Source: a virus. From it: a DNA stretch of 64,000 nucleotides. Shown here one piece after another: positions 6,594 through 39,557 of the stretch (its first letter is position 1; every line of letters starts with the position of its first letter). The DNA is taken from the IMG/VR virus record IMGVR_UViG_3300017758_000003, positions 14,044 to 78,043 of that record. One strand, written 5' to 3'. Made by a program: the position numbers and the translations under genes. Below the pieces are notes generated by a model, which saw nothing but the letters and a program-made list of their open reading frames with translations, ran no database searches and was not told the origin of the DNA.

Positions 6594-7724
6594 ATGAAGA
6601 AAATTAAACTAACAGAATCACAATATAATAAACTTATGTTGAATGAAGGTTCATACGATCAGATCGTAGGACTTATGGGTTCTAAACTTAAATCAGGTGC
6701 AAAAACTTTAAGTAGTACCGACCTATCAAGTATTGCTGATAGTATATATGATGCAATCAAAGGTGTGGGTACTGATGAAGACGCAATTAAAGCGGGGTTT
6801 TCAAAATGTGTCAACCTACATGATGTACAAGCATTAGCAAGAACTTTTCAAAAAAATACAGGAGAATCAATAGTCAGTTGGTTAGATGGTGACATTGATA
6901 GTGAAAATGATTGGAACGTTTATGTCTTAAGACCTATTAGAAACGCATACAACACGTCCAAACAACAAGGACACTTTGAAGCGGTGAAGGTAAGTAAGGT
7001 TGAAGAATCAATCATTGCAAAATTTCCTTGTCTAAAAGATACACCTGGTTATAAATTTTATAAGGAAGATGCTGGTAGAGGTATTCTTTACTTTACTGCA
7101 GATGGTGGAAACTATTATGGTATTAAACCTGATGGAACATTATACCTGTATAGTAGAGACGAAAACAAGTATGTTGCCTTCCCTGAAAAAACTAAATGTG
7201 TCGGTGCACAATATACCTCAATAGATGAATTAAACTTACATAATATTGCAGAGTACGGAGATACTCATGAATATGGTAGTGAAATCGAAGAAGCGGGACT
7301 TAACTTAAACCCAGGTGGTGTTACACCTGAGAAGAAGGAAGATCCTGTTAAAAAAGATGATGAAGTTAAAAAAGATGATGAGGTTAAAACAGACGCAAGT
7401 GCTGGTCAAGAAAAACAACCTGTACAATCAACAACAAGATTAATGACAGGGACTGATGTTTCTGAAATCCAAAAAATGTTACACGACGCAGGTCTTGGTG
7501 ACGTTGTTGGGTCTATTGATGGTAAGTTAGGTAAGAATACTTTAGCAGGAATTAAAGAATTTTTGTTAGGTGCTAATAGAAAGAAGATTGAAGCAATTGC
7601 AAAACTTGAACCTAAAGGAATAGAAAAGATTAAGACTAATGTTACCTCCCCTGAATTAAGAGTGGCGGAATATGGTTCAACACTAAACGAAAGTCAGAAA
7701 AGATTTAAAAGATTAATTCGATAA
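6594..7724 (+). CDS. putative virion protein: leader + annexin repeat + peptidoglycan-binding domain
   Basis: IYDAIKGVGTDEDAIK (annexin KGxGTDE) and VSEIQKML..IDGKLGKNT (PG_binding_1). Confidence 0.75.
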   Translation: MKKIKLTESQYNKLMLNEGSYDQIVGLMGSKLKSGAKTLSSTDLSSIADSIYDAIKGVGTDEDAIKAGFSKCVNLHDVQALARTFQKNTGESIVSWLDGDIDSENDWNVYVLRPIRNAYNTSKQQGHFEAVKVSKVEESIIAKFPCLKDTPGYKFYKEDAGRGILYFTADGGNYYGIKPDGTLYLYSRDENKYVAFPEKTKCVGAQYTSIDELNLHNIAEYGDTHEYGSEIEEAGLNLNPGGVTPEKKEDPVKKDDEVKKDDEVKTDASAGQEKQPVQSTTRLMTGTDVSEIQKMLHDAGLGDVVGSIDGKLGKNTLAGIKEFLLGANRKKIEAIAKLEPKGIEKIKTNVTSPELRVAEYGSTLNESQKRFKRLIR

Positions 7725-8062
7725 TGAAAATAGTTCTTACTGAAACACAATTAAACTCTCTTGTTGAGACTGATTATGAAGCATACGTCAAAACAGTATT
7801 TAAAGACGAAGAGAAATTAAAAGACGAAGTAGATACACACATTTCAGAAGACTCTGAAAAATGTAAGTGTGAATGTAACGAGGATGGGGAAGATTGTAAG
7901 TGTCCACCTGAGTGTGAAGAATGTGACTGTAATGAAAAAGAGTTAGGAGAATGGAATCCGAACGAATCTGTACCAACACAACCTGGTGGTTTAATGCAGG
8001 GAGCAATGTTTCCTAAATGGATACAAGAAAATAAAAACAACTTTAAAAGATTAATTAAATAA
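7724..8062 (+). CDS. leader-bearing protein with Cys-rich cluster
   Basis: MKIVLTETQL leader; CKCECNEDGEDCKCPPECEECDC. Confidence 0.75.
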   Translation: MKIVLTETQLNSLVETDYEAYVKTVFKDEEKLKDEVDTHISEDSEKCKCECNEDGEDCKCPPECEECDCNEKELGEWNPNESVPTQPGGLMQGAMFPKWIQENKNNFKRLIK

Positions 8063-8064
8063 TT

Positions 8065-8295
8065 ATGGCAGACCAAGCATCATCAAGACAAACAACTAAT
8101 GATATTAGAAGTAACCTAACCTATATCAACTCACTAATAGATGCTGAAGCGGCTAAAGGTGGAGAATGTATTGTGGTATCACCACAATATATAACAGACC
8201 CAATGATTAATACACTAGTAAATGCTAAAGGTTACAATGTAACTACAAAATCAGATTCATTGGGATCCTATAAAGAATATAAAATATCGTGGTAA
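8065..8295 (+). CDS. hypothetical protein
   Basis: 76-aa ORF within the operon. Confidence 0.75.
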   Translation: MADQASSRQTTNDIRSNLTYINSLIDAEAAKGGECIVVSPQYITDPMINTLVNAKGYNVTTKSDSLGSYKEYKISW

Positions 8296-8624
8296 TGAAA
8301 AATATTAAACTAACAGAAGAACAATATAACAGACTATTTGAAAAGAAACAAATAGAAGAACAATCGTCGCAACAAGTTACATGGCCACAAATGGATGATG
8401 ATGAAAAAAGGGAATACCTACAAAACTTTACATCTGATTCTGAAAAAATAGAACAAATGTTACGTAGTCCTGAAGATCCTACGAAGGAGTTTGAAGGTAT
8501 GAGTGACGATGGTAGTGTCGGTGACATTTCCGTTGAAAGATCAACACAAGAGATACTCGATGATATAGAGGGGGATGCCGATGAAATTCGACGTTCCATA
8601 GAAATTATAAAATCGAGAATGTAG
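8295..8624 (+). CDS. leader-bearing acidic protein
   Basis: MKNIKLTEEQYNRLFE; followed by a terminator at 8635-8662. Confidence 0.75.
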   Translation: MKNIKLTEEQYNRLFEKKQIEEQSSQQVTWPQMDDDEKREYLQNFTSDSEKIEQMLRSPEDPTKEFEGMSDDGSVGDISVERSTQEILDDIEGDADEIRRSIEIIKSRM

Positions 8625-8706
8625 GTAGGTGGTTAAGAGGGACGTTTGTCCCTCTTTTTTTTGCCCCCTTGACTTCCAAGATAAAATTCCTTACTTTTAG
8701 TATAGA

Positions 8707-8865
8707 ATGAAACAACAATACAAAATCAAAATAACTCCATTATCAGAAGAAAAGTTCTGTTCAGTTAAACCTCATGTAATTGAAATAGAAACAGATAATT
8801 TAGAGTGGAGTATGGACCAATACCAAAGGAATAGAAATCCACTCAAGTGGGAATTAGTAAAGTAG
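8707..8865 (+). CDS. small hypothetical protein (52 aa, not in track)
   Basis: MKQQYKIKIT...WSMDQYQRNRNPLKWELVK*; promoter TTGACT-N17-TACTTT at 8669-8697. Confidence 0.7.
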   Translation: MKQQYKIKITPLSEEKFCSVKPHVIEIETDNLEWSMDQYQRNRNPLKWELVK

Positions 8866-9225
8866 TTGTTTGTGTTTATCTAATACTTTGTATCCATAAT
8901 CAATTCTTGTCTCAATCAAAGGAGCGGAAAAACCAACAATCTCCTTTATCTCTAAAACCAATTCATTATCCTCACCAATTAATTTGGGGTTATCAAAGTA
9001 AACATACCTGTTTTTTTCAAAACCATTTAACATCTTATAATACGTAGACTCAAAGGTATTGAGTTCGTCAAGTAATTTTTCTAAATGTAGTAGATAAGGT
9101 GATACTTTCTTTTCGACGATAAAAGAGTAATCGACCGATTGTAAATAACCAAGTACCATATAAGACTTATGTTCAAAATCAATCGGATCATTAATATACC
9201 AACCTATAGGTAGAGTTGTAATCAT
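8854..9225 (-). CDS. hypothetical protein
   Basis: 123 aa; TATTTAT 4 nt upstream of the ATG. Confidence 0.8.
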   Translation of the reverse strand: MITTLPIGWYINDPIDFEHKSYMVLGYLQSVDYSFIVEKKVSPYLLHLEKLLDELNTFESTYYKMLNGFEKNRYVYFDNPKLIGEDNELVLEIKEIVGFSAPLIETRIDYGYKVLDKHKQLLY

Positions 9226-9240: not shown

Positions 9241-9894
9241 TTAAATTAATCTTTTTTCTTTGAATTCATTTAATATTAAACCTGCAAAATCTCTGTGACC
9301 CTTTGGGGACCAATGACTATCTTGGGATAGACCTTTAGTGTAATTTTTGAATCCTTGATATTGTGACCACTTTGTGTGATCCCAAACAACACATGTAACT
9401 CCTCTCATATTAAGTTCTTGTTTAAGTGAGTAACCTAACATCATATAGTACGTGTCTAATGAAGGTCCCACATCTCTAAAATCAACGAGAAATGAATTCC
9501 ATGTATTTTCTTTGTTCTTATCTTCACACTCTATCGGTCCACTTGAAATTATTGGGTCTCCTCTTTTCCCCCCGTTCCATATTCCTAAGTCATCAGCAGT
9601 ACTTTTTTTCATGTAGTTTCTTGCGGGATAAGATAAACCAATACTAACATAATCTCCCTCCTCAATCTTACTTAGTTTTTCAATAACCTTAAATAAGATA
9701 TGTGGTGAAGAGTTACCACCCACACCATAATCTTGTCTTAATAGGTTTAATTCTTTTGATACAATTTTTTGCCAAACGATCATTTTATCACCTCGATCTT
9801 CTAAGATATCATCCCACTGATTTTGTGTCATATCCAAAGGTCGTCCGAATTTATCTGAAAAACTATCACCAAAGACCCACAGTTTACTTTTCAT
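9241..9894 (-). CDS. SGNH/GDSL hydrolase-like protein
   Basis: LWVFGDSFS, GVGGNS and DSHWSPKGH. Confidence 0.8.
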   Translation of the reverse strand: MKSKLWVFGDSFSDKFGRPLDMTQNQWDDILEDRGDKMIVWQKIVSKELNLLRQDYGVGGNSSPHILFKVIEKLSKIEEGDYVSIGLSYPARNYMKKSTADDLGIWNGGKRGDPIISSGPIECEDKNKENTWNSFLVDFRDVGPSLDTYYMMLGYSLKQELNMRGVTCVVWDHTKWSQYQGFKNYTKGLSQDSHWSPKGHRDFAGLILNEFKEKRLI

Positions 9895-10727
9895 CAGTTT
9901 ACTGCCCTACCTTTCATCAGTTCCCAATCTCTAAGTGCCCTCACGTCATCGTTTGTTGATTCTGTAGCACATAACACATTATTGGTTGTGTGTAACTTGA
10001 AAGATAAATCAATCATTGCCGCCAAGTCTTTTGGGAAACAGTGACCACCAAAACCAAAGTCACCATCAGGTCCTGGTACCGACCAATGTGAATCACCAAG
10101 TCTTGGATCTAATGTTGCATATTCCACAACCTTATCATAGTCAATTTCAAGTTTATTACACAGTTGATATATTTCATTTGCAAAACTAACTTTTACAGAT
10201 AGAAACGTGTTAGTTAGGTACTTTACCATTTCAGCGTGTGTCGAGTCAGTTTTAATAATCTTAGCATTAGGAAATACTTTTGCAAATATTTGTTTAAGAT
10301 TTGTTGTGTGAGGTCTTGGACCTCCTAATATAATCCTATCTTGATTGTTATAATCCTCTACTGCATTTCTTTCTGTAAGAAATTCGGGATTAAAAATTAT
10401 ATTAAGGAACTCATAACTTGAATTTAATCTTTCTGTTGTACCACATACAACAGTAGATTTTAAAATAATTGTTTTCTTTTCGTTGTTATTTGAACAAATT
10501 AAATCAACGGCATCAAGTGTACTTTCAATGATGGAAGTATCACAACTTCTATCACTATTCATCGGTGTGGGTAGACACACGAATATATAAAGTGAACTCG
10601 TAACAACCTCTTCTAATGTTGAGTTACTTAAATGTTCTTTTTTATCATACGTATTAACCTTAAAATATTTACTAAATTTTTGAGTCACTGCGTTTCCTAC
10701 AAATCCTTGTCCTATTACTCCAATCAT
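9894..10727 (-). CDS. ugd: UDP-glucose/GDP-mannose 6-dehydrogenase family (no C-terminal domain)
   Basis: GQGFVG, CLPTP, KSTV, NPEFL, GFGGHCFPKD. Confidence 0.9.
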   Translation of the reverse strand: MIGVIGQGFVGNAVTQKFSKYFKVNTYDKKEHLSNSTLEEVVTSSLYIFVCLPTPMNSDRSCDTSIIESTLDAVDLICSNNNEKKTIILKSTVVCGTTERLNSSYEFLNIIFNPEFLTERNAVEDYNNQDRIILGGPRPHTTNLKQIFAKVFPNAKIIKTDSTHAEMVKYLTNTFLSVKVSFANEIYQLCNKLEIDYDKVVEYATLDPRLGDSHWSVPGPDGDFGFGGHCFPKDLAAMIDLSFKLHTTNNVLCATESTNDDVRALRDWELMKGRAVN

Positions 10728-11638
10728 AATAATTCTGTTCTTAAATACTCCATTAGGTTTATGGTCGGGTCGAAATCAAACCTATCTCTTAGTTTGGTAC
10801 AATCCAATCCATACCTTCTGTCGTGTCCCATCCTGTCTTGTATAAATTCAAATTTAACAGGGTAGTTTATTATACCTCCGATATTACGGAGGATTTCTTT
10901 ATTTGTATAACGGTCACCAGTACCGATATTCCATATTCCAATATCCGATAACATCAAATCAAAAATGATATTAACATTATCCTCAACCCAAATCCATTCT
11001 CTTATTTGACTACCATCACCATATACGGGGACAACTTGATTATTACTAATACAATCCATGACCTTTGGTAAGAACTTTTCTTTGTGTTGAAACTTACCAT
11101 AATTGTTACACGATCTTGTTATCACATAAGGAAGTTCAAATGTTCTACCCGCTGAGATAACAATTTGATCTGCAGAAGATTTGGATGCGGAATAGTAAGA
11201 TGATGGTTTACAAACATCACCTTCTAATGACATTTTTTTATGGGATCCCGTATCGTTTAAATCACCATAAACTTCATCTGTAGATATTTGTACAAACTTG
11301 TAAAAGGTTTTCATTTTACGTGCTAATTCAACTAAATTGTATGTACCATTTATGTTTGTTTGTATAAATGGGTTACCGTCATCAATAGAATTATCAACGT
11401 GTGATTCGGCAGCGAAGTTTACGATGTACTGTACATCACCTATATCTTCTTTAGTTAAATCACAAATATCTTTTTCAATAAACTCAACGTTAGGTGGTAT
11501 TCTTTCTAAATTAGAGGCGTATGTTAGTTTATCCACCACAATTATCTCAAAACCTTTATGTCCCGAATTATGTTTATTCAATAGATGTACAAAGGATGAT
11601 CCTATAAACCCTGCACCACCTGTGATTAAAACTTTCAT
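10724..11638 (-). CDS. rfbB: dTDP-glucose 4,6-dehydratase
   Basis: TGGAGFIG, FAAESHVD, STDEVYG, YSASK, GHDRRY. Confidence 0.93.
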   Translation of the reverse strand: MKVLITGGAGFIGSSFVHLLNKHNSGHKGFEIIVVDKLTYASNLERIPPNVEFIEKDICDLTKEDIGDVQYIVNFAAESHVDNSIDDGNPFIQTNINGTYNLVELARKMKTFYKFVQISTDEVYGDLNDTGSHKKMSLEGDVCKPSSYYSASKSSADQIVISAGRTFELPYVITRSCNNYGKFQHKEKFLPKVMDCISNNQVVPVYGDGSQIREWIWVEDNVNIIFDLMLSDIGIWNIGTGDRYTNKEILRNIGGIINYPVKFEFIQDRMGHDRRYGLDCTKLRDRFDFDPTINLMEYLRTELL

Positions 11639-11725
11639 TGTGTAAAATACCTATATGTATTTATGAACAAGAATGTTCCATAAAATAGAAGCGCTGTTAT
11701 TAAGAACACATCTATAGTTTCAATT

Positions 11726-12445
11726 TTATTCAAAAAATTCTTCATATCTCCTTGTGTTTAAGGAAAAGTCTTTAGTCTGATGTAGACTTGACTTTTTTAT
11801 ATCTGTATTCCTTGTGGTTGCGTAGTCATAAATTGACTTTCTTTTAGTACCAACATTTATCACACCTTTAAAATCCTTGTTTTTACAGATATTAATAATC
11901 ATCGGACTAATAACATCAACATAATCTTTGGATGTGTACAGATTATCGTACGCATTTTCGTAGGGAAATTTACCATTTCCAAAACTTGTTCGTACTATTA
12001 CGTGGTTAGGTACGAATTTGACAGATGATTCACCCCCTAATTTTGACCAAGCATATAAATTATATGGGTTAATTGGATCAACTTCAGAATAATTACCTGA
12101 CATACCATCATAAACATAGTCAGTTGAAATGTATATTAACCTTTTATTGGTTTTAATACAAAATCTTGACAAGTTTGCAGTCCCAACAATATTTGTCTGT
12201 ATAAATTGGTCTTTTTCTGACAAAGTTTCACTAACGTCTATCATGGCAGCAGTGTGTATTATGGTATTAAAGGGTAATAACTCCTCAAAATGGTGTTTCG
12301 AACCTATTGTACACATTTCTCTACTGAAATTTGTCATAATAAGTCCGTTAGAATCCTTTTTTAGTTGTTTCCCTAATAGACCATTACCGCCAGTGACAGC
12401 AATTCTATCGATATCATTAACGGGATATGTATTTTGTACCTCCAC
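11726..12445 (-). CDS. rfbD: dTDP-4-dehydrorhamnose reductase-like
   Basis: TGGNGLLG, YISTDYVYDG, PYNLYAWSKLGGE. Confidence 0.85.
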   Translation of the reverse strand: MEVQNTYPVNDIDRIAVTGGNGLLGKQLKKDSNGLIMTNFSREMCTIGSKHHFEELLPFNTIIHTAAMIDVSETLSEKDQFIQTNIVGTANLSRFCIKTNKRLIYISTDYVYDGMSGNYSEVDPINPYNLYAWSKLGGESSVKFVPNHVIVRTSFGNGKFPYENAYDNLYTSKDYVDVISPMIINICKNKDFKGVINVGTKRKSIYDYATTRNTDIKKSSLHQTKDFSLNTRRYEEFFE

Positions 12446-12515: not shown

Positions 12516-13406
12516 ATGGATAAAAAGACACTATTAGAAGATATTAAAAGAATACACACACTAACTTATGGTGGTCAGAAGACAAATATGATTGTTGAGG
12601 GGTTATTTGATAGTGATGATACGAAAGCGGACGAAGTTTCTGACGATGTTAGTGAATTCATAGATAGTTTAAAACAGACTTCTATTAGTGGTTTATCTCA
12701 AGAGGAAAAGGGTAGTATGGAATACAAGAAAAGTGTAGAATCCATGCAAATTTCATTAGTTTTATTGGGTTATGAGTTACCTGTACACGGTATAGATGGT
12801 TTATTTGGTCCTGAAACTGCAAGTGCAGTGAAACAATTCATGAGTGATAACCAAATGGAGATTGGTAGTGAGGAAATGTTAATGGTTACTCCTGAAGTAA
12901 TGAGTTTATTAACTAAAAAAGTACAAGAAAAGGGTGTTAGTAGTGAAGATCTTAAAAAACACATAAATAAACCGTTAAAACACGATGGTTCTTTAGGTGA
13001 AAAAACTGATGGTATAACAATTGCCACTTATTTAATGAAGAAAAACTATTCCAAAGCACAATCGGCAGGAATTGCAGGTAATTTGTATGTGGAGTCGGGT
13101 TATAGGACTGGTGTTATAGGCGATAATGGTACTTCCTATGGGTTAGCACAATGGCACAAGACAAGATGGGAACGTTTGAATAAGTTCTGTGAATCTGAAG
13201 GATTAGATCCATCAGAAGCAGAAGCCCAACTAATATATTTAGATTGGGAACTACGTACACGTGAGAAAAGGGCATATAAAGAGTTAATGAAAACCGATAC
13301 ACCCTATGATTCAGCATATGCGTTTGCAAAGTACTTCGAAAGACCACGCAAAATAAACCCCAAAAGAATGTCTAAGGCTGAGGAGATATATAAACGTTTA
13401 GGATAG
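12516..13406 (+). CDS. PG-binding domain + phage tail lysozyme domain protein
   Basis: HGIDGLFGPETASAVKQF; AGIAGNLYVES, GLAQW, FERP. Confidence 0.85.
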   Translation: MDKKTLLEDIKRIHTLTYGGQKTNMIVEGLFDSDDTKADEVSDDVSEFIDSLKQTSISGLSQEEKGSMEYKKSVESMQISLVLLGYELPVHGIDGLFGPETASAVKQFMSDNQMEIGSEEMLMVTPEVMSLLTKKVQEKGVSSEDLKKHINKPLKHDGSLGEKTDGITIATYLMKKNYSKAQSAGIAGNLYVESGYRTGVIGDNGTSYGLAQWHKTRWERLNKFCESEGLDPSEAEAQLIYLDWELRTREKRAYKELMKTDTPYDSAYAFAKYFERPRKINPKRMSKAEEIYKRLG

Positions 13407-13407: not shown

Positions 13408-13623
13408 ATGAAAGTATCAATAACCGAAAGTCAACTTAAATTAATAGTAGAGGACAGTAAAAAGTCCAAAAAAGACAAAAAAACACCCAAAAAAGACCAA
13501 AACAAGGGTGATTTTGACCGTTTGGCCTATTATTTAGAGTATTATAGTAATCTCACACCATCAGGATTTGATATCTGTAAAAAAGGTGATGATATCATCA
13601 TTTCCATCCCTGAACGTAACTAA
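13408..13623 (+). CDS. leader-bearing small protein
   Basis: MKVSITESQLKLIVE. Confidence 0.75.
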   Translation: MKVSITESQLKLIVEDSKKSKKDKKTPKKDQNKGDFDRLAYYLEYYSNLTPSGFDICKKGDDIIISIPERN

Positions 13624-13730: not shown

Positions 13731-14102
13731 ATGAAAAATTTATTTTTAGTAATGTCTATACTTCTGTCGACCACAATTTACGGTCAAGAGTTCAACACAG
13801 ATGTAAAGAAGTCTACAAAAGAGTTTGAACTTATGTATGATGATTACTATAAAGTTACCATGAGTGAAATTGATGGTACGATAACACAAGAAGGTTTTTA
13901 CTCTGTCGGTGAGGACGGTAAATTAGACAGAGAAGGTAAGTGGGTGTTATATAGTGATGGAGAAATCCTTAGTGTTGGTCAATTTAGTAACGATCAACTT
14001 GTTTGGATTAAAAGTGGTGGTGAGAAATTCACAAGACAACAAATCATAGATGAAAGAAAAAGATTAAGGTCAACGTCAGTTGCACTTAACACAATTAAGT
14101 AA
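13731..14102 (+). CDS. exported protein with MORN-variant/YwqK-like repeats
   Basis: Signal peptide ending TTIYG|Q; QEGFY...REGKWVLYSDG. Confidence 0.65.
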   Translation: MKNLFLVMSILLSTTIYGQEFNTDVKKSTKEFELMYDDYYKVTMSEIDGTITQEGFYSVGEDGKLDREGKWVLYSDGEILSVGQFSNDQLVWIKSGGEKFTRQQIIDERKRLRSTSVALNTIK

Positions 14103-14160
14103 TAACTTAAACACATCACAAAAAAAGGGGACTATATGTCCCCTTTCTTATTTCCTTAAT

Positions 14161-14651: not shown

Positions 14652-15578
14652 ATGAGGAACCTAACAATACTATTATTCGTAATTACCATAACAAGTTGTT
14701 CACCCCTACAATTTAAATATTCAACTCTAAATCACGCAGGTCAGATTGATGGAATTTATAATAATAAGACGGTAAAAATAGACACCATTGAAAATGAGTT
14801 TCAGTTAGCGAGAAAATTTAGAACCGACGATAGATTCAGATGGGATTTTGCCCAATATGCGATGAGACAAGATATGAGATGGAGTTATGATTTCTATTGG
14901 AATAATAGAATGTATAGACGTGGAGTTGGTTCTCCATTCAATTTCTACTGGAACTCTCAACAATATTGGTGGAGTTGGGCTAGTAATTCCCCTTTCAATA
15001 TGGGATTCAATCAATGGGACCCATTTGGATTTAACAACTATGGTTGGGGTAGTACATACTATGGATATAACTATGGTTGGAATTTATACAATAACTATGG
15101 TTGGGGTTTTAATAATTGGGGATCGAGAGATACATGGAATACATACGCTTGGAATAATAGAGACGATTTAAGGGACGTTGTAAGAGTAAGAGGTAGAAGA
15201 GGGTCAAATAGTGTTGTTAACACAAATAATGATGTCTCAAATACTCCTAACAAAAGAATTGTGATTAATAATGAAGATGGTATTGTTATAAGAAATAATA
15301 ACGGAGAAATCATAAGAATTAATAATGGGAGGAACAATAATAATATTAGAGTTTACAACAACCCAAATAGGGTACCCAATAATCTGAGACCTAACAATAA
15401 CAATAGAGTTATTAATAACAATAATGTTAGGGGTTCGTGGAGACCAAACAACAATAATAACAACGTCAACTCAAGAAGTTCTTCATCACCGAGATCTTAT
15501 GTTCCACCACCAAATGGAGGAAACACAAGTGGTGGAAAAGTGATAAGTAGAGGTTCAAGAGGAAATAACAAACAATAA
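14652..15578 (+). CDS. lipoprotein with W/Y/G/N-rich and Asn/Arg-rich low-complexity regions
   Basis: Lipobox ITSC; TATTTAT 4 nt before ATG 14652. Confidence 0.8.
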   Translation: MRNLTILLFVITITSCSPLQFKYSTLNHAGQIDGIYNNKTVKIDTIENEFQLARKFRTDDRFRWDFAQYAMRQDMRWSYDFYWNNRMYRRGVGSPFNFYWNSQQYWWSWASNSPFNMGFNQWDPFGFNNYGWGSTYYGYNYGWNLYNNYGWGFNNWGSRDTWNTYAWNNRDDLRDVVRVRGRRGSNSVVNTNNDVSNTPNKRIVINNEDGIVIRNNNGEIIRINNGRNNNNIRVYNNPNRVPNNLRPNNNNRVINNNNVRGSWRPNNNNNNVNSRSSSSPRSYVPPPNGGNTSGGKVISRGSRGNNKQ

Positions 15579-15847
15579 TGAAAAAAGTAATCATTACAGA
15601 AACACAAGTAAAAAAACTAATTGATAATGTCGTTGAAGATTTAGATTATCACAGGGTTGATGATGCGTCTCCTGAAAAAGACAAATACGTCATGTCTCAA
15701 GAAAATGAAGAGGATGAAGTAGGTGAGGGGAGAAGGTCTCTTTCAAGAACAAGAAAGAAAAGATTATTCTCCAAGGCGGAAGTAATGGCAAACCCCGCAA
15801 GATTTAAACACCACGATAGAAAATTAAAAGGGGTAAAACTTAAATAG
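15578..15847 (+). CDS. leader-bearing protein with basic C-terminus
   Basis: MKKVIITETQVKKLIDNVVE. Confidence 0.75.
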   Translation: MKKVIITETQVKKLIDNVVEDLDYHRVDDASPEKDKYVMSQENEEDEVGEGRRSLSRTRKKRLFSKAEVMANPARFKHHDRKLKGVKLK

Positions 15848-16331
15848 AATAAGTAATAACATTGATTGACGAAGCAACAATATTTCCGTCAGAATCATTC
15901 TCTAATTCAATTTCAATATTTTCATCAATACCAATAATACCTCTTGGTTCTTGTTGATCAATATCCGCAGAATCCCAATCAATTTTTACTTTGATTGTTG
16001 CATCCGTTGGATCTTCTGAACCTTCAGGATAATATTGAATATACAAATCTAATTCTTCAGGACCTTGAACGTCATATACTGAAATTGTTTTGATTCCCCA
16101 ACTACGGTGTTCTGATTCGATCAGGTAGTTTACGGTGAACTCTAAATTTTCAATATCTTCTATCTCTTGACCTTTGAATGTTAAACTCGAACTATAGTTA
16201 AAATCAAGTTCACATTTCATTTCATATCTGTTATCACCCATACCTTCATTTAGTTCATTCGTTTCACCCTCAGATGAAACATATTCGTTTATTTTATTCA
16301 TTTGTTCAGTAGTCAAAACAATTTTTTTCAT
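15840..16331 (-). CDS. leader-bearing acidic protein
   Basis: Start reassigned to MKKIVLTTEQMNKINE, downstream of a TATTTAT motif. Confidence 0.75.
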   Translation of the reverse strand: MKKIVLTTEQMNKINEYVSSEGETNELNEGMGDNRYEMKCELDFNYSSSLTFKGQEIEDIENLEFTVNYLIESEHRSWGIKTISVYDVQGPEELDLYIQYYPEGSEDPTDATIKVKIDWDSADIDQQEPRGIIGIDENIEIELENDSDGNIVASSINVITYSI

Positions 16332-16825: not shown

Positions 16826-16850
16826 CGGTAATCCACTAAAAACAATAATC

Positions 16851-19687: not shown

Positions 19688-20254
19688 ATGGAAAAATTTT
19701 TATTCAAGAAAGGTTACTACAGTATCTATGAAATCAAAACCAAAGGTAAGGTAAAGTATATGGTTGATAACGGTAAAACCTTGTTTGTTGCGAGGTTCAA
19801 TAAATGGATAACAAACCCATACAGAGACAAAAAAACATTCACAACTTTAAAGAAAGCTCAAGAATATGTTTCTAAAAAACTTATGATATCAAAACAAAAA
19901 AAGAAAAAGAAACTTGATAAATTACCTAAATCACTTTATTTGGTACTTCTCAAAGAAGAGAAATCAGGTAATCTTTTTGTTAAGGTTGGTATAACATCCA
20001 AAAAATATATAATGAGAAGATTTTCTAAAAAGTATGGGTACGAGGGGTATACACTTGAAAAGATACTTCGTAGGATTAATACTCCACGTGCGGAGAGATT
20101 AGAAGAGAGTATAAAACTTACATTAAAAAAGAAAAGGTCCGTAAAAAGTTACAGACCCTTGTTGGAAAACTTCGGTGGTTATACCGAATGTTATAATATT
20201 GATTCTCTTGATTCTATAGTTCAGGTATTTGACTCTGCAACGAAGAATGATTAA
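19688..20254 (+). CDS. GIY-YIG/T5orf172-like nuclease domain protein
   Basis: LYLVLL..FVKVGITS..RRF, LEE and GYTEC. Confidence 0.6.
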   Translation: MEKFLFKKGYYSIYEIKTKGKVKYMVDNGKTLFVARFNKWITNPYRDKKTFTTLKKAQEYVSKKLMISKQKKKKKLDKLPKSLYLVLLKEEKSGNLFVKVGITSKKYIMRRFSKKYGYEGYTLEKILRRINTPRAERLEESIKLTLKKKRSVKSYRPLLENFGGYTECYNIDSLDSIVQVFDSATKND

Positions 20255-20601
20255 CCGATCCCAATAAAAGATAAAAACTTATCTATAAGGTCACCGTGTT
20301 TACTTTTACAATCTCTCATAATATCTTTCTCTTTTTCAGTAAGAGAAGAACCTGTGGAGTAACCCCAAACACCGTCCATATCTAAACCTCTTTTAGTTCT
20401 TTGGAACTTTGCGATTGCTGATGAAGTTCCATCACCATGTAATCCATCAATTTCTAATTTAGATCCGACTACTTTATTCAAAAAACATTGAATTGCTTTC
20501 TTCGCATTTAATTCTGCGGTCTGTTCGGTCAATACTTGTTCCTCGACAACATTGTCCAATATACTCTTGATTTGAGATTCAGTAAAAATGTATTTCTTCA
20601 T
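20251..20601 (-). CDS. leader + peptidoglycan-binding domain protein
   Basis: IQCFLN..LEIDGLHGDGTSSAIAKFQ..DGVWG. Confidence 0.8.
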   Translation of the reverse strand: MKKYIFTESQIKSILDNVVEEQVLTEQTAELNAKKAIQCFLNKVVGSKLEIDGLHGDGTSSAIAKFQRTKRGLDMDGVWGYSTGSSLTEKEKDIMRDCKSKHGDLIDKFLSFIGIG

Positions 20602-21034: not shown

Positions 21035-21035
21035 T

Positions 21036-29319: not shown

Positions 29320-29322
29320 AAT

Positions 29323-32340: not shown

Positions 32341-32350
32341 AACATAGAAA

Positions 32351-33808
32351 ATGAATATAAAATTAATAACAGTAACGTGGTCACATGAAAATACATATGA
32401 CATAGAAAATACCACATTATATAAATCTTTTAAACGATATAATCCTCATAAAGAAATTGTACACCATCATTTTAACAGAGGTCACTTCCATAAAGAAGAA
32501 AATGAATTTAGAAATAGGTTTGGTAACGAGAGTGAATACCTTCTTTATAAAATACATTTATGGAGAGACATAGTCAGAAATATTGAGTGTGATTACATAG
32601 TATTTTGTGATGCAAACGATGTTGTATGTTTAGGTAATGTGGGTGACTTAATAGGTCAGTTTGATTTGGAGAATAATATCATATGTGGACACGAAAAAAA
32701 TCAGTGGCCAACACCTGAAGCAAAACAATCTTGGCCAGAGTACAAAGATTATAATCAATACGACACAAGTGAGCGTAAGTACTTAAACTCAGGAATGATT
32801 TTATCAAAAAAAGATAAGTATGTTGAAATGTTAGATGTTATGGTTGAAAAATTAATGTTTGGAAAAGACATTAAAACTTTCAATAATGACCAAGGTGTTT
32901 TTACGTATTATTATAATACGGGGGTTGAACCGAGAATTAAATTAGATTACTCCAATGTCTTCACAGTAAACACATTCTCAAGATCACACGACGAATATGA
33001 GATGGTGGGTCACAGAATACAATCTAAAAAAAATGAGACTCAACCTTTATTTGTACACGATAATGGTTGGAATCACGGAAGTCCAAGATTTTTAAATCAT
33101 TTTGAGTTAAAAAGACATTTTATTAACTCATATCCGAGACTTAAAGACATATCTAGAGAAAGACCGATTAATGCGACTCATCAAGAGTACTTAATCAGAA
33201 TGAGAGATGAGTTTGGTTTTAATCCAAATATTATATATGATGTTGGTGCTTGTGTAAATCATTGGAATACAATTGCGAAAGAGGTTTGGCCAAATGCTAA
33301 GTATTATTTATTCGAAGCGATGGAAGAATCAGAAGATTTATTTTTAGAGGGAAATGACCCATATGAAATTGGTGTATTTAGTGATGTCGATGATAAAGAG
33401 GTTACATTTTATAAAAATGTTACATTCCCTGGTGGTAATTCCTATTACATGGAAAACCCACAACATAGTAGTATGGCATCCGCTTTATTTGAGAATCCAT
33501 CCAACCAATTTGCGAGAAAAACAAAGACTTTAGATACGGTTATGAAGAGAAGAGGATTTCCACTACCACAACTTTTGAAAATAGACGTACAAGGTTGTGA
33601 AATTGACATCCTAAAAGGTTGTCCTGAAATACTTAATAATGTAGAACATCTGATTGTTGAGTTACAACATGTTGAATATAACATTGGAGCTCAATTACAA
33701 GACGAATCAATACCAATTATAGAGTCGTTAGGTTTTGAATTAATAACACCTTCCTTCTCACTGTCAAGTCACGCAGATAGTGACTATCATTTTAAAAAAA
33801 TAAAATAA
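32351..33808 (+). CDS. PLOD-type glycosyltransferase domain fused to FkbM methyltransferase
   Basis: FCDANDV, EKNQWP, YLNSG, NDQ, HDNG; YDVGA, LKIDVQGCE. Confidence 0.8.
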   Translation: MNIKLITVTWSHENTYDIENTTLYKSFKRYNPHKEIVHHHFNRGHFHKEENEFRNRFGNESEYLLYKIHLWRDIVRNIECDYIVFCDANDVVCLGNVGDLIGQFDLENNIICGHEKNQWPTPEAKQSWPEYKDYNQYDTSERKYLNSGMILSKKDKYVEMLDVMVEKLMFGKDIKTFNNDQGVFTYYYNTGVEPRIKLDYSNVFTVNTFSRSHDEYEMVGHRIQSKKNETQPLFVHDNGWNHGSPRFLNHFELKRHFINSYPRLKDISRERPINATHQEYLIRMRDEFGFNPNIIYDVGACVNHWNTIAKEVWPNAKYYLFEAMEESEDLFLEGNDPYEIGVFSDVDDKEVTFYKNVTFPGGNSYYMENPQHSSMASALFENPSNQFARKTKTLDTVMKRRGFPLPQLLKIDVQGCEIDILKGCPEILNNVEHLIVELQHVEYNIGAQLQDESIPIIESLGFELITPSFSLSSHADSDYHFKKIK

Positions 33809-33818
33809 ATTAATAACT

Positions 33819-34031
33819 ATGAAACAACATGTATATAACTTTTTAAAGTCTCAAGCCGAGGCAGATAAAAACAAGGCACTTGCAAGTATTGAACTACTAA
33901 CTAATAATCCTGCAGGTATTGGGGATCACTCAACAAAGGATTATTGGGACAATTGTACTGAAACACTTAAATTACTTTCATCTGCTGATGAGAGATTAGA
34001 AATATTAGAGAAATACTTCAAACAGTCATAG
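33819..34031 (+). CDS. small phage protein
   Basis: NPAGIGDH motif. Confidence 0.75.
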   Translation: MKQHVYNFLKSQAEADKNKALASIELLTNNPAGIGDHSTKDYWDNCTETLKLLSSADERLEILEKYFKQS

Positions 34032-35591
34032 ATGGGTTTACCAAACATTGCATTACACAGTCATCATAATGCTGCATTTGCCGTTGAATTAGACGGTGAT
34101 ATTGTGACGGTCATTGAGTTAGAAAGATTTGTAAATCAGAAAAACGCAAGTCATTGTTTTTTTCAACCAATCCATGTTCATGAACCTATCATAGGTGAAG
34201 TATATCAGTATTTGAAACTGAACTATGGTTTTACAAAATACGAAAACTTTATTATGGGTCATGGTCATCAAGAATTTCCTGAATCATGGAAAAAAATGAT
34301 CCCCGCAAATAATTACATAAAAAATGAAGATCACCATATTTCACATGCATCTTCAAGTTTTTATCAGTCACCACATGATGAAGCAGTTATCATTTCTTTT
34401 GATGGTGGTGCAAATGATGGTTTCTTTAGAATCCTACACGGAATAAAAGGACAGGACCTAAAAGATATAAAACACTACTCGATTGATTTAGGTAGTCATT
34501 ACCACCTTATAGGTTTGTTTTGTGAAGATATAAAACATTATAACCAACTAACTGCCGCAGGTAAGGTCTTAGGTTTACAATCATACGGTAAAATTAGAGA
34601 CGAATGGGTACAACCATTGAAAGATTTCTTTAATTCAAGGATACCCTATTTCGTGGATTTAGAACAAAAGAAGAAAACACTATCAGACAGAATCGGTATA
34701 CCATTTTCTGAAGAAAATAAATTAAAGGGACAAGATCAATACGACTTTGCCCGTACTGCACAACATGCATTTGAATTAATATTTTTCGAGTTGGTAGATG
34801 AGAGTATCAAACAGTACCAACTACCTATAATACTTACAGGTGGTTGTGCATTGAATATAACTCTTAACAGTAGAGTTAAAGACACTTACCCTCATTTAGA
34901 TGTGTTTATTGCACCTAATTCGAGTGATTGTGGTATTCCCGTAGGTTTACTTTGTACACTCGTTAAACCAAAGAAAATTATAGACGTAACGTATAAAGGT
35001 GTTGCTGCGTTAGACCGAACTTTACTTATGGAGTATGTCAATACACATAACGCTAAAAAGGTTAATGTAGATGCAATCGTTGAGGATCTGAGTATTCAAA
35101 GGATATTAGGGTTAGTACAAGGTAATTCCGAACATGGTCCAAGGGCATTAGGTAACAGAAGTATTATATGTTCCCCAATTCCATTAGATATGAAAGACAC
35201 TTTAAACCACAAAGTAAAACACAGAGAATGGTTTAGACCATTTGCACCAATAGTTCGTTTAGAAGATGTTTCTGAATATTTTGAATGGGAAGGTGAAAGT
35301 AGATGGATGAACTTCTGTCCAATGGTAAAAGAAGAGTGGAGGGATAGATTACCCGCAATAACCCACATTGATGGTACTGCGAGAGTACAAACAGTAACTA
35401 AAGAACAAAATCCTTTAGTTTATGAAATACTAACTAAATTTAAAGAGAAAACAGGTGTGGGGGTTTTGGTAAATACATCTTTTAACGTAGATAGGAAACC
35501 AATATTATCATCATATAAAGATGCATTTAAAGTATTCAACGAAACTGAATTAGATAGATTATACTTAGACGGATATTACTTTACTAAATAA
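34032..35591 (+). CDS. carbamoyltransferase (NodU/CmcH family)
   Basis: HHISHA, GGCALN, GPRALGNRS, REWFRPFAP, NTSFN. Confidence 0.93.
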   Translation: MGLPNIALHSHHNAAFAVELDGDIVTVIELERFVNQKNASHCFFQPIHVHEPIIGEVYQYLKLNYGFTKYENFIMGHGHQEFPESWKKMIPANNYIKNEDHHISHASSSFYQSPHDEAVIISFDGGANDGFFRILHGIKGQDLKDIKHYSIDLGSHYHLIGLFCEDIKHYNQLTAAGKVLGLQSYGKIRDEWVQPLKDFFNSRIPYFVDLEQKKKTLSDRIGIPFSEENKLKGQDQYDFARTAQHAFELIFFELVDESIKQYQLPIILTGGCALNITLNSRVKDTYPHLDVFIAPNSSDCGIPVGLLCTLVKPKKIIDVTYKGVAALDRTLLMEYVNTHNAKKVNVDAIVEDLSIQRILGLVQGNSEHGPRALGNRSIICSPIPLDMKDTLNHKVKHREWFRPFAPIVRLEDVSEYFEWEGESRWMNFCPMVKEEWRDRLPAITHIDGTARVQTVTKEQNPLVYEILTKFKEKTGVGVLVNTSFNVDRKPILSSYKDAFKVFNETELDRLYLDGYYFTK

Positions 35592-36420: not shown

Positions 36421-37017
36421 ATGAATATTAAACTGACAGAGTCTCAACTTATAAATATCATCGAAAATGTGGATAAACTGACAGGTGCAGAGAAATTCGC
36501 AGATACCGTTGATAAATTAGCCAGTTTATATAAAGATGAATTACCTGATAGTGTCATTAATAAAATGATTGATGACGTTGATGGTGCTCACTTCACTGAG
36601 GAGGAATTTCAAGTACCACTCAAACAATATAAATTAACAAGTCCCTATGGTCCGAGAAATATTGGCGGTAATGCAAGTAGAAATCATAAGGGGGTTGATT
36701 TGGGAGTACCTTCGGGAACTCCAATTTATTGTCCTGCCGATGGTAAGGTTATAAGATCTAAAAATGCTGGTGGTAAATGTGGTGGTTTTTTAAAAATTAA
36801 ACACACCAACGGTTTTGAAACAAAATATTGTCATTTGACTAATTTTAATATAGTCAAAAAAGGTCAACAGGTGATAAAGGGACAACTTGTAGGTAAAACA
36901 GGTGGTGGACCAAATGACCCGTACAGAGGTAACTCAATGGGACCACACTTACATTATGAGGTTTTAAAGGGTGGCACACATGTTGACCCACAAACCATTC
37001 ACACTACACTTTCTTAA
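36421..37017 (+). CDS. leader + M23 metallopeptidase
   Basis: HKGVDL, YCHL, GPHLHYEV. Confidence 0.9.
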   Translation: MNIKLTESQLINIIENVDKLTGAEKFADTVDKLASLYKDELPDSVINKMIDDVDGAHFTEEEFQVPLKQYKLTSPYGPRNIGGNASRNHKGVDLGVPSGTPIYCPADGKVIRSKNAGGKCGGFLKIKHTNGFETKYCHLTNFNIVKKGQQVIKGQLVGKTGGGPNDPYRGNSMGPHLHYEVLKGGTHVDPQTIHTTLS

Positions 37018-38037: not shown

Positions 38038-38077
38038 AACACCATTCATCATATAAACCAATATAATATTTCATAGT

Positions 38078-38284
38078 ATGAAGAAGAAGATGATGGTAAT
38101 AGCGTTAAGTTCAATATTATTAGTAGGATGTGGGTCCACTAAGGAACTAGACAAATGTTGCAAAGAAACAACTCAAGAGGAAAACAAAGTAGAGAAAATT
38201 GTAAGTAAAGACCCATTGATGAAATTATTAGCGTCTGCCTTAATTATATTCGCAATTAATACAATTGTGACTGGTGGTCGATAA
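38078..38284 (+). CDS. small lipoprotein with C-terminal hydrophobic helix
   Basis: Lipobox LVGC; LLASALIIFAI at the C-terminus. Confidence 0.7.
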   Translation: MKKKMMVIALSSILLVGCGSTKELDKCCKETTQEENKVEKIVSKDPLMKLLASALIIFAINTIVTGGR

Positions 38285-38289
38285 GTGAA

Positions 38290-38664
38290 CTAATTTTCAT
38301 GTTCAAAGAGTTTATTTACCCTCTTTAATACTCGGTCACATAAAGACCTATAGTTTTTGTCGTATTGGTAATTACTTTGGTGTACTTTGTTCCCATATAG
38401 AATAGTTGCGTGGTTCCTACGAAGTAAACTACCTATTTTTGCGTATGGATAACCGAAACGTTCTCTTAGAATGTATGAAAATAGTTGTCTACCTTCAACA
38501 ATATCTCTTAATCTCGATCTTGAAGTTAATTCTTCAATACTAATCGATCGTTCTTCTGATATTATTTTTAAAACCATATCGGTGTTAACAATCATTTTTT
38601 TGTTCGAAATAATTCTTGCTTTAGTGTTGGGATTTAATCCAACATACAAATACGGATGTACCAT
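38290..38664 (-). CDS. stand-alone DnaA domain IV (HTH)-like protein
   Basis: SRSRLRDIVEGRQLFSYILR..IGSLLRRNHATILY. Confidence 0.8.
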   Translation of the reverse strand: MVHPYLYVGLNPNTKARIISNKKMIVNTDMVLKIISEERSISIEELTSRSRLRDIVEGRQLFSYILRERFGYPYAKIGSLLRRNHATILYGNKVHQSNYQYDKNYRSLCDRVLKRVNKLFEHEN

Positions 38665-38666
38665 TA

Positions 38667-39248
38667 TTAAAATTTATGTAAAGTGATTTCTAAATGTGAT
38701 TCGATGGCCTTGTCGTATTGGTTACCATCAATTAAAATATTAGTATAGAAAACTTGGGACGTTAGTTTTAAAACATTTGAAGGCATTGCTCCATAGGTGT
38801 CAAGTGAGAATGTATATCTCGTTTTTTCACCCATATAATCAGTTTCAAGAATAGTTCGTTCTGTACAATATACACATGGAAAATCAATAGGTATCCATTC
38901 ATCACCTAAACCATCGGTGATTCTTAAGTCATAATAATCGAATTCCCATTGAGTATCATCAATATCAAATCTTCTATTAATAATCGTACTTTCAAAATCT
39001 TGAGTTAGTAATAGATTACCTTGACTATCGACACCCGTCACATAGAAAGAACCCACAGACGCTTGATCTTCAGAAGTTACTGTAACTTCACTATCATAGT
39101 TTACATTGTCAATAACAACATCAATATCTACAACATCCCACCTACCATTTAAGTTAAGTTGGGGGTTACTTTCAAGTTCGTATTTTTCACATGATGCGAA
39201 CAGTAAAACTGTTACTATCCACAAAAATATTGTTCTAAATTTATTCAT
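38667..39248 (-). CDS. lipoprotein (lipocalin-like start)
   Basis: FASC|EKY and LNGRWDV. Confidence 0.75.
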   Translation of the reverse strand: MNKFRTIFLWIVTVLLFASCEKYELESNPQLNLNGRWDVVDIDVVIDNVNYDSEVTVTSEDQASVGSFYVTGVDSQGNLLLTQDFESTIINRRFDIDDTQWEFDYYDLRITDGLGDEWIPIDFPCVYCTERTILETDYMGEKTRYTFSLDTYGAMPSNVLKLTSQVFYTNILIDGNQYDKAIESHLEITLHKF

Positions 39249-39329
39249 CTCATCTAATTTTAAACAAATATAAGTATTTTTTTTGATATCACAACAAATT
39301 TCAAAATATTTTTATGATATTTATGTATA

Positions 39330-39557
39330 ATGAGAATAGTAGTAAGTGAAAAACAGTTAGGTATGCTAGCGTCATACCAGTCTGATCTTGACGAACAAGA
39401 ATCAGGTGATACAGGTGGTTCAGGAACTACGGCAGGATCTAAAGGACAGTGGGAAACAGGGGTATCAAGAGGTCCTGATAACCAAATTGGTCTTACTAAA
39501 TGGTCTGACATAGTTGGATCTAAAATAAGTAGAGGTAAAGCAAACCCACTATATTAA
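39330..39557 (+). CDS. leader-bearing small protein
   Basis: MRIVVSEKQL; W...SRGxxNxL/I occurs twice. Confidence 0.75.
   Translation: MRIVVSEKQLGMLASYQSDLDEQESGDTGGSGTTAGSKGQWETGVSRGPDNQIGLTKWSDIVGSKISRGKANPLY

Follow-up and report, generated by a model that had tools for sequence, protein, structure and literature searches.

Why should nine proteins with unrelated bodies begin with the same short peptide? This question is raised by a 64,000-nucleotide (64-kb) stretch of DNA, hereafter the window, from an uncultured, T4-related phage with a genome of ~300 kb, of which the window represents about a quarter. A sequence-only reading had proposed that the peptide is a portable tag that loads diverse cargo into the head and is cleaved by the prohead protease. 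Our analysis bears out the portability of the tag and makes it moderately probable that this lineage has, in the leader, its own analogue of the T4 capsid-targeting sequence (CTS), in which case the tagged proteins would be packaged and the leader cut off.

All nine N-termini translate as originally quoted, and every leader start is the first ATG of its frame (9/9). On the plus strand, the starts lie at 6594, 7724, 8295, 13408, 15578, 36421 and 39330; on the minus strand, they lie at 16331 (ORF 15840-16331) and 20601 (ORF 20251-20601). Leader protein 1 (6594..7724, +; 376 aa) has its leader in residues 1-18, ending in L-N-E, and a weak PG_binding_1 match near its C-terminus. Its stop overlaps the start of leader protein 2 (7724..8062, +; 112 aa), the leader of which ends in L-V-E at residue 15, followed by an acidic body with 8 Cys. 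Leader protein 3 (8295..8624, +; 109 aa) ends its leader with L-F-E at residue 16 and has an acidic body, while leader protein 4 (13408..13623, +; 71 aa), encoded downstream of a tail-lysozyme gene (12516-13406), has I-V-E at residue 15 and a basic, Lys-rich body. A long-form leader with V-V-E at residue 20 is found in leader protein 5 (15578..15847, +; 89 aa), which has a basic body, and in leader protein 7 (20251..20601, −; 116 aa), the body of which is a PG_binding_1 domain. Leader protein 6 (15840..16331, −; 163 aa) shows a divergent T-T-E-Q register with I-N-E at residue 16; its orthologue in the related genome G001 likewise begins with a leader. In leader protein 8 (36421..37017, +; 198 aa), I-I-E at residue 15 closes the leader, and a ~45-residue low-confidence linker and an M23 metallopeptidase domain follow. 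Leader protein 9 (39330..39557, +; 75 aa), which also has a leader-bearing orthologue in a related genome, carries a variant leader with V-S-E-K-Q and L-D-E at residue 22; its gene heads a conserved module with 39559-43683, which encodes large, partly hydrophobic proteins. None of the remaining 116 genes on the contig carries the leader, not even the highly expressed head genes or a canonical endolysin (47080-47961).

The leader takes the form M-K-K-[IV]-x-[LI]-T-E-x-Q-[LFY]-x-x-[LI]-[IV]-(E) and is 15-22 residues long, often being extended by a second hydrophobic-x-E at residue 20-22. In the predicted proteins (22,826 residues), the core motif occurs seven times within 6 residues of an N-terminus and never internally. 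When the genome was scanned with a profile HMM built only from 31 foreign (IMG/VR) leaders, seven window leaders scored 17-26 bits, against a background maximum of 6-9 bits in this genome and two control phages of 160-190 kb. The leader at 16331, with its register shift, was borderline at 7.1 bits, and the divergent variant at 39330 was not recovered by this HMM. Conservation is at the level of amino acids, not DNA, with synonymous and six-fold codon variation at conserved positions. Sec, Tat and lipoprotein signal peptides were rejected as identities for the leader: the nine N-termini alternate polar and hydrophobic residues, are rich in Lys, Glu and Gln and have no hydrophobic run, as judged by direct reading for a twin-arginine motif, a lipobox Cys or a hydrophobic core of at least 10 residues. 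Neighbouring genes with genuine signal-peptide and lipoprotein starts served as comparison. In an AlphaFold model of the M23 protein, residues 7-18 form a helix on a low-confidence arm of ~60 residues, which is not packed against the M23 domain.

The bodies are indeed unrelated, with no significant pairwise similarity among the nine. The predicted M23 peptidase was confirmed (Pfam, 4e-27), as were the PG-binding body (PG_binding_1 at 8e-7 in the protein starting at 20601; weak in that starting at 6594) and the Cys cluster of the protein starting at 7724, while the proposed annexin body fell below threshold (16.5 bits vs a cut-off of 25) and is not supported. Tagged cell-wall proteins include M23 peptidase and PG-binding proteins in the window and a glucosaminidase elsewhere, where a SAM-lyase-like protein, a nucleotidyltransferase and many small uncharacterised proteins are also tagged. 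Phage M23 orthologues on contigs of 190-290 kb all carry the leader, in place of which a membrane anchor or signal peptide is found in the M23 homologues of bacteria.

The leader extends well beyond the window. It is present on more than 114 IMG/VR contigs, the first 114 loci of which fall into 48 unrelated body clusters, and on ~122 cluster representatives among 1.84 billion library proteins, nearly all at residue 1; the dozens of body families found outside the window further support a portable tag. Tandem duplications and internal copies of the leader occur, in fused proteins. Among the matches to the leader pattern is a transposase (L111), and unrelated helix-turn-helix proteins start similarly. 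No cultured member of the clade was found in our search; the nearest cultured phages have a portal identity of at most 43% and lack the leader, and phage RB43 gave no match to the leader pattern. Sister lineages without this leader have x-E-terminated leaders of their own, which favours a general principle. Flavobacterium phage immuto, which has S77 and lacks both this leader and a Clp ATPase, possesses two leader groups of its own that end in hydrophobic-x-E, some of them encoded in the head module. Microcystis phage Mel-JY01 has yet another shared leader of its own.

The window contains a T4-type head module with a gp20 portal, a Peptidase_S77 protease, an acidic scaffold and a gp23 capsid protein. 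By its sequence, the portal gene (57117..58940, +; Portal_T4, 1.2e-77) places the phage among T4-related viruses. The prohead protease of the gp21 family (60482..61165, +; Peptidase_S77, 3.4e-23) bears I-L-I-E at its own residues 12-15, resembling the L-I-E of T4 gp21, and we infer that this enzyme removes the leader. At the gp22 position lies a very acidic protein of 454 aa (61248..62612, +), which had no match in a family search and holds 26 [LIV]-x-E sites; it is presumed to form the scaffold core and may be the docking partner of the leader. The major capsid protein (62643..64000, +; Gp23, 1e-42), the gene of which is cut by the contig end, has the claimed site L-I-N-E/A at residues 57-61, within a putative propeptide boundary L-I-N-E/A-A (residues 57-62; the slash marks the cut), and [LI]-x-E/A is kept at this boundary in 5 clade members.

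A promoter-like motif and gene order link the leader genes to this module. As had been claimed, all nine lie in units headed by TATTTAT, a promoter-like box that 28 of the 125 genes have in the 45 nt before them, against ~2 expected. The box at 6569..6575 (+) heads the unit of leader proteins 1-3; further boxes heading leader units are located at 12505, 14641, 36410 and 39318 on the plus strand and at 16353 and 20614 on the minus strand. As the terminase, portal, protease and scaffold genes also have this box ahead of them, the leader genes are probably expressed late. Sister genomes have leader genes within the head module itself, beside the protease, portal, terminase or capsid genes. S77 was detected in 17 of 42 leader-bearing contig fragments, vs ~17 expected if it were universal (summed CheckV completeness, assuming one copy per source genome), so that all leader source genomes appear to carry S77. 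This association holds at clade level only and therefore cannot separate function from shared descent.

The hydrophobic-x-Glu motif with which the leader ends is a candidate cut site. [LIV]-x-E, which had been noted for most leaders, is present in 9/9, ending at residues 15-22, and in 45 of 63 non-redundant IMG/VR leaders vs 28% in two controls. In the IMG/VR leaders, it peaks at residue 16 and at residues 20-22, positions that were left free by the search pattern. Among library hits, 33 have the Glu at residue 16 and 67 have it at residue 21, the latter peak being partly circular because the search profile already contained that Glu. Two features temper this evidence for capsid loading. Hydrophobic-x-Glu is frequent in Lys/Glu-rich helices, with a background of 28% per 16-residue window, and what follows the Glu in leaders is mostly N, E, Q or D, vs A in the capsid protein.

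In T4, the internal proteins IPI, IPII and IPIII and Alt carry a CTS that is removed by the prohead protease gp21 (Mullaney and Black 1996; reviewed in PMC9026906 and PMC3012670); propeptides of 10-19 residues target unrelated proteins into the core before gp21 removes them. The present system is similar in that a short N-terminal leader, ending in hydrophobic-x-Glu, stands on otherwise unrelated proteins in a genome with a gp21-family protease, gp20 portal and gp23 capsid protein; in both, tagged genes are dispersed beyond the head module while sharing a promoter-like box with head genes, and the cargo set differs between relatives. Unlike that of T4, the leader is about twice as long (15-22 residues vs 10), has a conserved T-E-x-Q core and two alternative Glu positions (16 and 21), marks at least nine genes in 64 kb, includes cell-wall enzymes among its candidate cargo and occurs in tandem and internal copies in fused proteins. 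Comparison by eye with the T4 decapeptide revealed only the M-K start and the x-E end in common, and the leader thus reads as an analogue, not a demonstrable homologue, of the T4 tag. Propeptides of ejection and inner-body proteins in the giant phages phiKZ, 201phi2-1 and SPN3US are cut by gp175/gp245 after [SAG]-x-E; in SPN3US, the first 15 residues, which include cut motifs, are identical between the paralogues gp53 and gp54 (PMC5694885, PMC9026906). These are likewise large phages with a T4-related head protease, which trims many head proteins after Glu, and their propeptides have several cut sites each, as the leader may. However, those propeptides are mostly longer than 100 residues and belong to paralogous families, rather than being one short tag on unrelated bodies, and their P3 residue is small where that of the leader is hydrophobic. 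Encapsulin cargo-loading peptides are also short and portable, directing unrelated enzymes into an HK97-fold shell, but they are usually C-terminal, are kept on and serve a cellular nanocompartment with no protease involved.

Cell-wall enzymes are odd cargo for a T4-type head interior; proteins that bind or cut peptidoglycan would be of little use if freed into the cytoplasm with the DNA, which is how T4 delivers its internal proteins. Myovirus cell-wall enzymes are usually located in tail structures. The leader might accordingly dock its proteins elsewhere in the virion, for instance at the baseplate, at the portal or in the tail tube lumen, either uncleaved or cut by something other than the head protease, and the tagged enzymes would then work in the periplasm during penetration. 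This would suit the several cell-wall bodies (M23, PG_binding_1, glucosaminidase), the tandem and internal leader copies, which suggest a binding module with no need of a free N-terminus, and the position of leader protein 9 at the head of its conserved module of large, partly hydrophobic proteins. Nevertheless, we regard docking as unlikely: no tail gene was identified adjoining the window leader genes, sister leader genes lie in head rather than tail modules, the SAM-lyase-like and nucleotidyltransferase bodies would act in the cytoplasm, and the fixed hydrophobic-x-Glu ends are left without explanation. A live rival partner, just as clade-wide as S77, is a ClpC-like AAA+ unfoldase (48112-50130, −), a two-ring Clp ATPase without an N-domain, the gene of which is usually separated from that of the protease by 12-25 kb. 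Short terminal tags are what AAA+ unfoldases typically recognise, and the leader could single out late proteins to be unfolded, or degraded at a set time, together with ClpP of phage or host origin. Consistent with this, the ATPase has a V-G-F loop (residues 535-537), which presumably, as in the ClpC literature, serves ClpP docking; the ATPase was detected in all 5 clade genomes checked and among 38 fragments in 12 (~14 expected if universal), ClpP is present in G001 and G002, and immuto lacks both leader and ATPase. Yet this is a clade-level correlation checked against just two or three controls, and immuto has x-E-terminated leaders of its own, showing that such leaders do not need Clp. Given also that a fixed-position Glu matching the capsid-protein site would go unexplained, and that it is not obvious why a phage should have about ten of its own late proteins destroyed, we consider this role quite improbable.

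About as improbable, or slightly more so, is that the leader has no address at all, being what stays conserved at the N-terminus of a gene family that otherwise diverges fast, or a generic aid to the expression or folding of late proteins. AT-rich genomes have many proteins that start with M-K-K, unrelated helix-turn-helix proteins such as the transposase start alike, and homologues in the relative G001, which is 93% complete, exist for only 3/9 bodies, a share much like the 46% seen genome-wide. Set against this, the bodies differ in Pfam domains and show no mutual similarity, amino acids are conserved over 16-21 residues although the codons vary, only these nine genes of the contig bear the tag, bacterial M23 homologues have a different N-terminus, and tandem leader duplications occur. 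Finally, a block of glycosyl- and carbamoyl-transferase genes (28066-35591) lies among the window leader genes, as might be expected if the leader were a RiPP-like recognition sequence for a modifying enzyme. We give this very little credence: the 78-kb contig has no Radical_SAM gene, the radical-SAM gene of G001 is ~105 kb from its leader genes, none was found in two out of four clade genomes, phage RB43 gave no match to the leader pattern, and the bodies are full-size enzymes, not short core peptides.

Capsid loading draws together the portability and peptide-level conservation of the leader, the promoter-like motif shared with head genes, the hydrophobic-x-Glu ends, the gp21-family protease with a matching capsid site and the head-module location in sister genomes. 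Of the original proposal, the portable tag thus stands as observed, and delivery into and out of the head is retained in conditional form. Because the common leader ends in the cut motif of the head protease, the nine tagged proteins are probably loaded into the capsid and trimmed, by analogy with T4 internal proteins. Based on these data, we propose a plausible route. The short strand and amphipathic helix of the leader would bind the scaffold core during prohead assembly, thereby enclosing the tagged proteins in the head. The gp21-family protease would then cut after Glu 16 and/or Glu 21, with a possible extra cut after the conserved [LI]-T-E at residue 8, and the freed cargo would exit the head with the DNA at infection.

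A common leader of 15–22 residues begins nine proteins of the window, with starts at 6594, 7724, 8295, 13408, 15578, 16331, 20601, 36421 and 39330, of which those at 16331 and 20601 lie on the minus strand. All nine N-termini translate as the sequence-only reading had written them, and each start is the first ATG of its own reading frame. All seven occurrences of the core motif in 22,826 residues of predicted protein are N-terminal, with none internal. To keep the test non-circular, a leader HMM was trained on 31 leaders from other contigs. The genome scan that the sequence-only reading had proposed recovered seven window leaders with this model at 17–26 bits, the next matches scoring 7.1 and 6.3 bits, and in two complete control phages (160 and 190 kb) the maxima were 9.4 and 6.2 bits. 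The leader at 16331 is register-shifted and borderline in the HMM, while that at 39330 is a variant, V-S-E-K-Q, and the orthologue of its protein in a related genome also carries the leader. At the conserved positions codon use varies freely: hydrophobic position 6 is encoded by eight different codons, Thr by three and Ser by members of both its families. What is conserved, and under selection, is therefore the peptide and not the DNA or RNA.

The nine bodies show no significant similarity to one another, as had been claimed, and the leader is a common tag on them. The domain names proposed for the bodies held in part: Pfam analysis supported M23 in the 36421 protein (4e-27) and PG_binding_1 in that at 20601, gave a weak PG_binding_1 match in that at 6594 and found nothing else, and the "annexin" label was dropped because its Pfam match fell below threshold. 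Searches of PHROGs and Pfam found no function for most leader bodies or for the leader proteins in the head modules of sister genomes. The first two leader proteins have a common C-terminal ending, F-K-R-L-I-[RK] (7680–7724 and 8024–8062, plus strand), preceded in the first by N-E-S-Q, which resembles a second, C-terminal copy of the leader's helical half. In the related genome G001, a full leader-like copy forms the end of a 138-aa ORF (locus L157, ~5830–5894) and is almost identical to the leader of a gene ~900 bp downstream (6804), with a lipoprotein gene between the two. The ninth leader protein is the first of a plus-strand module at 39330–43683, followed by proteins of 417 aa (Gly- and hydrophobic-rich), 735 aa and 216 aa. 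The 735-aa protein combines a membrane-like segment with a PG-binding-like stretch and carries, ~60 residues before its C-terminal end, a leader-like motif. In G001 too, the module's first two genes are adjacent; no member gave a family match, and its proteins are candidate ejection or channel proteins.

The tag is also portable. M23 homologues split mainly into a phage-type and a bacterial group. All of the ~45 phage-type proteins (200–230 residues, on contigs up to 287 kb) start with the leader or a close variant, followed by a hypervariable linker; the bacterial homologues match in the catalytic domain alone and have membrane anchors or signal peptides as N-termini. A third, small group from another lineage (library proteins P0049–P0051, ~300 aa) carries a different, T4-like leader, M-[RK]-[ED]-L-I-R-K-I-L-K-E, so one kind of cargo is found behind two unrelated tags. 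In an AlphaFold model on the M23 alignment, the M23 domain is confident, and the leader (helix 7–18) sits on a low-confidence arm of ~60 residues, unpacked against the domain. Leader-bearing bodies in other genomes include a glucosaminidase, a SAM-lyase-family protein and a nucleotidyltransferase; a 2206-residue WG-repeat protein has three internal leader copies, and several smaller proteins have tandem or internal ones. The ordinary endolysin of the window (PG_binding_1 and Amidase_2, 47080–47961) is without a leader, as is a late-unit protein with PG_binding_1 and Phage tail lysozyme domains (12516–13406, plus strand; 1e-31). With these two and the 735-aa protein, the number of window proteins that have PG-binding-type domains is at least five.

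A degenerate DNA pattern for leader residues 1–14 matched at least 114 IMG/VR loci, and nearly all of the matches listed begin long ORFs. Among the loci listed there are 48 unrelated body clusters, and 22 of these loci each contain between two and six leader ORFs. With a CheckV completeness of 15–79%, the larger leader contigs point to source genomes of ~300 kb. A 40-leader profile searched against 1.84 billion cluster representatives gave 133 matches at E ≤ 0.001, of which ~122 are genuine and nearly all lie at residue 1. Large proteins of 500–2000 aa with tandem I-T-I-T-E-S-Q-I-S-D-L repeats (P0118, P0119, P0124, P0135 and P0175) gave a weak cross-match to the leader profile; they score 8–11 bits on a 22-column model and were set aside as probably an unrelated repeat family. 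Among cultured phages, tblastn with a 25-residue leader gave chance matches only, a pattern search did not find the leader in phage RB43, and an 18-column leader alignment, searched without a positive control, had no match in three phages; a scan of complete genomes with an HMM then found that the nearest cultured phages lack the leader. A word-indexed search limited to residues 1–40 returned near-identical orthologues only, and a full-text literature search found no paper describing the motif.

One mark of the proposed proteolytic processing is at the end of the leader. The sequence-only reading had most leaders ending in [LIV]-x-E; all nine in the window do so, at residues 15–22. Among 63 non-redundant IMG/VR leaders, 45 have [LIV]-x-E within residues 11–26, against a control rate of 28% both in internal windows of leader proteins and at other N-termini of this genome. 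Glu positions are fixed, with peaks at residue 16 (11 cases) and residues 20–22 (22 cases), the latter unconstrained by the search pattern. Of the library matches, 33 have Glu at residue 16 and 67 have it at residue 21, a count that is partly circular because the search profile contained Glu 21; Asn is the commonest residue before Glu. The conserved [LI]-T-E at residues 6–8 is itself a possible cut site. Another mark is a matching site in the capsid protein, where the proposed L-I-N-E|A-A was found ~nine residues before the first segment aligning to mature T4 gp23, and [LI]-x-E|A is kept there in five clade members. By alignment to the solved T4 gp23, the boundary of the propeptide lies near residues 45–61, which fits L-Y-E (residue 51) and I-N-E (residue 60) alike. 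I-L-I-E at the N-terminus of the prohead protease resembles the L-I-E that T4 gp21 has close to its own N-terminus.

The protease belongs to a T4-type head module at the 3′ end of the window, comprising genes for the large terminase (55283–57070), portal (Portal_T4, 57117–58940; 1e-77), gp21-family prohead protease (Peptidase_S77, 60482–61165; 3e-23), an extremely acidic 454-residue protein in the scaffold position (61248–62612) and a Gp23-family capsid protein truncated by the end of the contig (62643–64000). The window is 64 kb of a 78,043-bp contig with a CheckV completeness of 25%, which implies a genome near 300 kb. Among cultured phages, the closest portal sequences are those of Microcystis phage Mel-JY01 (43% identity) and Flavobacterium phage immuto (38%). 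The many lipoprotein-type starts, the nearest bacterial M23 homologues and kinship with immuto point to a probable host in the Bacteroidota. Elsewhere, the window encodes sugar-nucleotide enzymes (a UDP-glucose dehydrogenase-like enzyme and two epimerase/dehydratases; 9241–12445, minus strand) and a block with a GlcNAc-type glycosyltransferase and a carbamoyltransferase (28066–35591, plus strand); both regions have distant DNA matches to jumbo Xanthomonas/Stenotrophomonas phages and cyanophage genes. The stretch at 13731–25184 is unusually dense in ORFs with signal-peptide or lipoprotein starts, among them a predicted secreted non-specific endonuclease (Endonuclease_NS, 24564–25184; 1e-21), and a protein with a putative papain-like cysteine peptidase domain (DUF1796; 1e-7) is encoded just 5′ of the first leader unit (5064–5753, plus strand).

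Leader and head genes have a promoter-like box in common. TATTTAT is overall no more frequent than base composition predicts, yet 28 of 125 genes (~2 expected) have a copy within the 45 nt upstream of them. As had been noted, it heads every leader-containing unit; it also stands in front of the terminase, portal, protease and scaffold genes, and the 14-kb block upstream of the window has a single copy. Co-regulation of leader and head genes is therefore plausible from the motif. In relatives, leader genes are placed in the head module itself. G001 (310,691 bp, 93% complete, portal identity 77%, syntenic head module) has at least seven leader ORFs, most at 11–36 kb and one adjoining the capsid gene. 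In more distant clade members they lie inside the module, one directly 3′ of the protease gene in G002 and four among the portal, terminase, protease and capsid genes in G003. Three of the nine leader bodies are common to G001, versus 46% of all proteins; a hyperplastic cargo locus is not claimed, because the cargo turns over no faster than the remaining accessory genome.

Cell-wall cargo would favour a tag that docks proteins at a tail or portal site, but such docking is unlikely in view of the Glu signature, the cargo of cytoplasmic type and the position of leader genes in head modules. A leader without any addressing function is hard to reconcile with unrelated bodies, replacement of the bacterial N-terminus and tandem copies, and we regard it as quite improbable. 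A radical-SAM or RiPP-type tag was dropped as scarcely credible after a search found no such enzyme encoded near leader genes.

The leader might instead be read by the phage's ClpC-like unfoldase, a two-ring AAA+ ATPase of 672 aa (48112–50130, minus strand) without a Clp N-domain and with a V-G-F loop at residues 535–537. All five clade genomes examined encode the ATPase, as do 12 of 38 fragments, usually 12–25 kb from the prohead protease gene; G001 and G002 encode ClpP, and immuto, which lacks this leader, lacks the ATPase. Its clade-wide presence is a real confounder of the association with Peptidase_S77, which occurs in 17 of 42 leader-bearing fragments (~17 predicted from summed completeness if each source genome has one copy). 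However, when shared N-termini were sought de novo in immuto (NC_055915.1, loci L134–L142), which has S77 without the Clp ATPase, this phage proved to have two leader groups of its own ending in hydrophobic-x-Glu, each of four proteins (1803, 103806, 117631 and 118632; 102294, 102880, 113188 and 123355). Some of these genes lie in the head module, either just 5′ of the terminase gene or flanked by those for portal and protease. A further group occurs in Mel-JY01: three proteins starting M-I-K-L-K-S-L-L-x-E, which resemble each other beyond the leader and may be paralogues. Leaders ending in x-E thus track S77 phages generally, not Clp, and recognition by the unfoldase seems improbable.

We consider it fairly probable that the leader is this lineage's own analogue of the T4 capsid-targeting sequence. 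The N-terminal propeptides of T4, 10–19 residues long, attach unrelated proteins to the scaffold core and are cut off by gp21 after hydrophobic-x-Glu, and foreign proteins are packaged and delivered when fused to the first ten IPIII residues (PMC9026906, PMC3012670). By analogy, the leader would bind a tagged protein to the scaffold and be cleaved off, leaving the protein in the head for release at infection. The address-peptide principle goes back to Mullaney and Black (1996), and processed head proteins with common N-termini have already been described in SPN3US (PMC5694885, PMC9026906). Particular to this clade are the 21-residue tag with its T-E-x-Q core and two alternative Glu positions, its occurrence on more than 100 protein clusters of uncultured ~300-kb phages, cell-wall enzymes as cargo, and tandem and internal leader copies. 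Our fuller proposal is tentative: in this clade, probably of Bacteroidota phages, a two-site address peptide, sometimes doubled or at fusion joints, may load well over 100 unrelated families, including cell-wall hydrolases and a SAM-lyase-like enzyme, into the capsid.

Anti-restriction proteins of T4 belong to the set that is carried in the head and released, so the tagged set, if our reading is right, would be a source of counter-defence and cell-entry functions and a ready-made list of candidate injected counter-defence proteins. The tag would serve as a sequence label that picks out head-carried, infection-released proteins of uncultured phages from metagenomes alone, and with the protease it would provide a packaging handle for engineering Bacteroidota phages. 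A T4-type head would deliver cell-wall enzymes besides cytoplasmic effectors, and peptidoglycan enzymes as cargo raise the question of where the head-stored proteins of a contractile-tailed phage end up. The load-then-trim device of T4 would then be general in phages with gp21-type proteases, each lineage using a peptide of its own.
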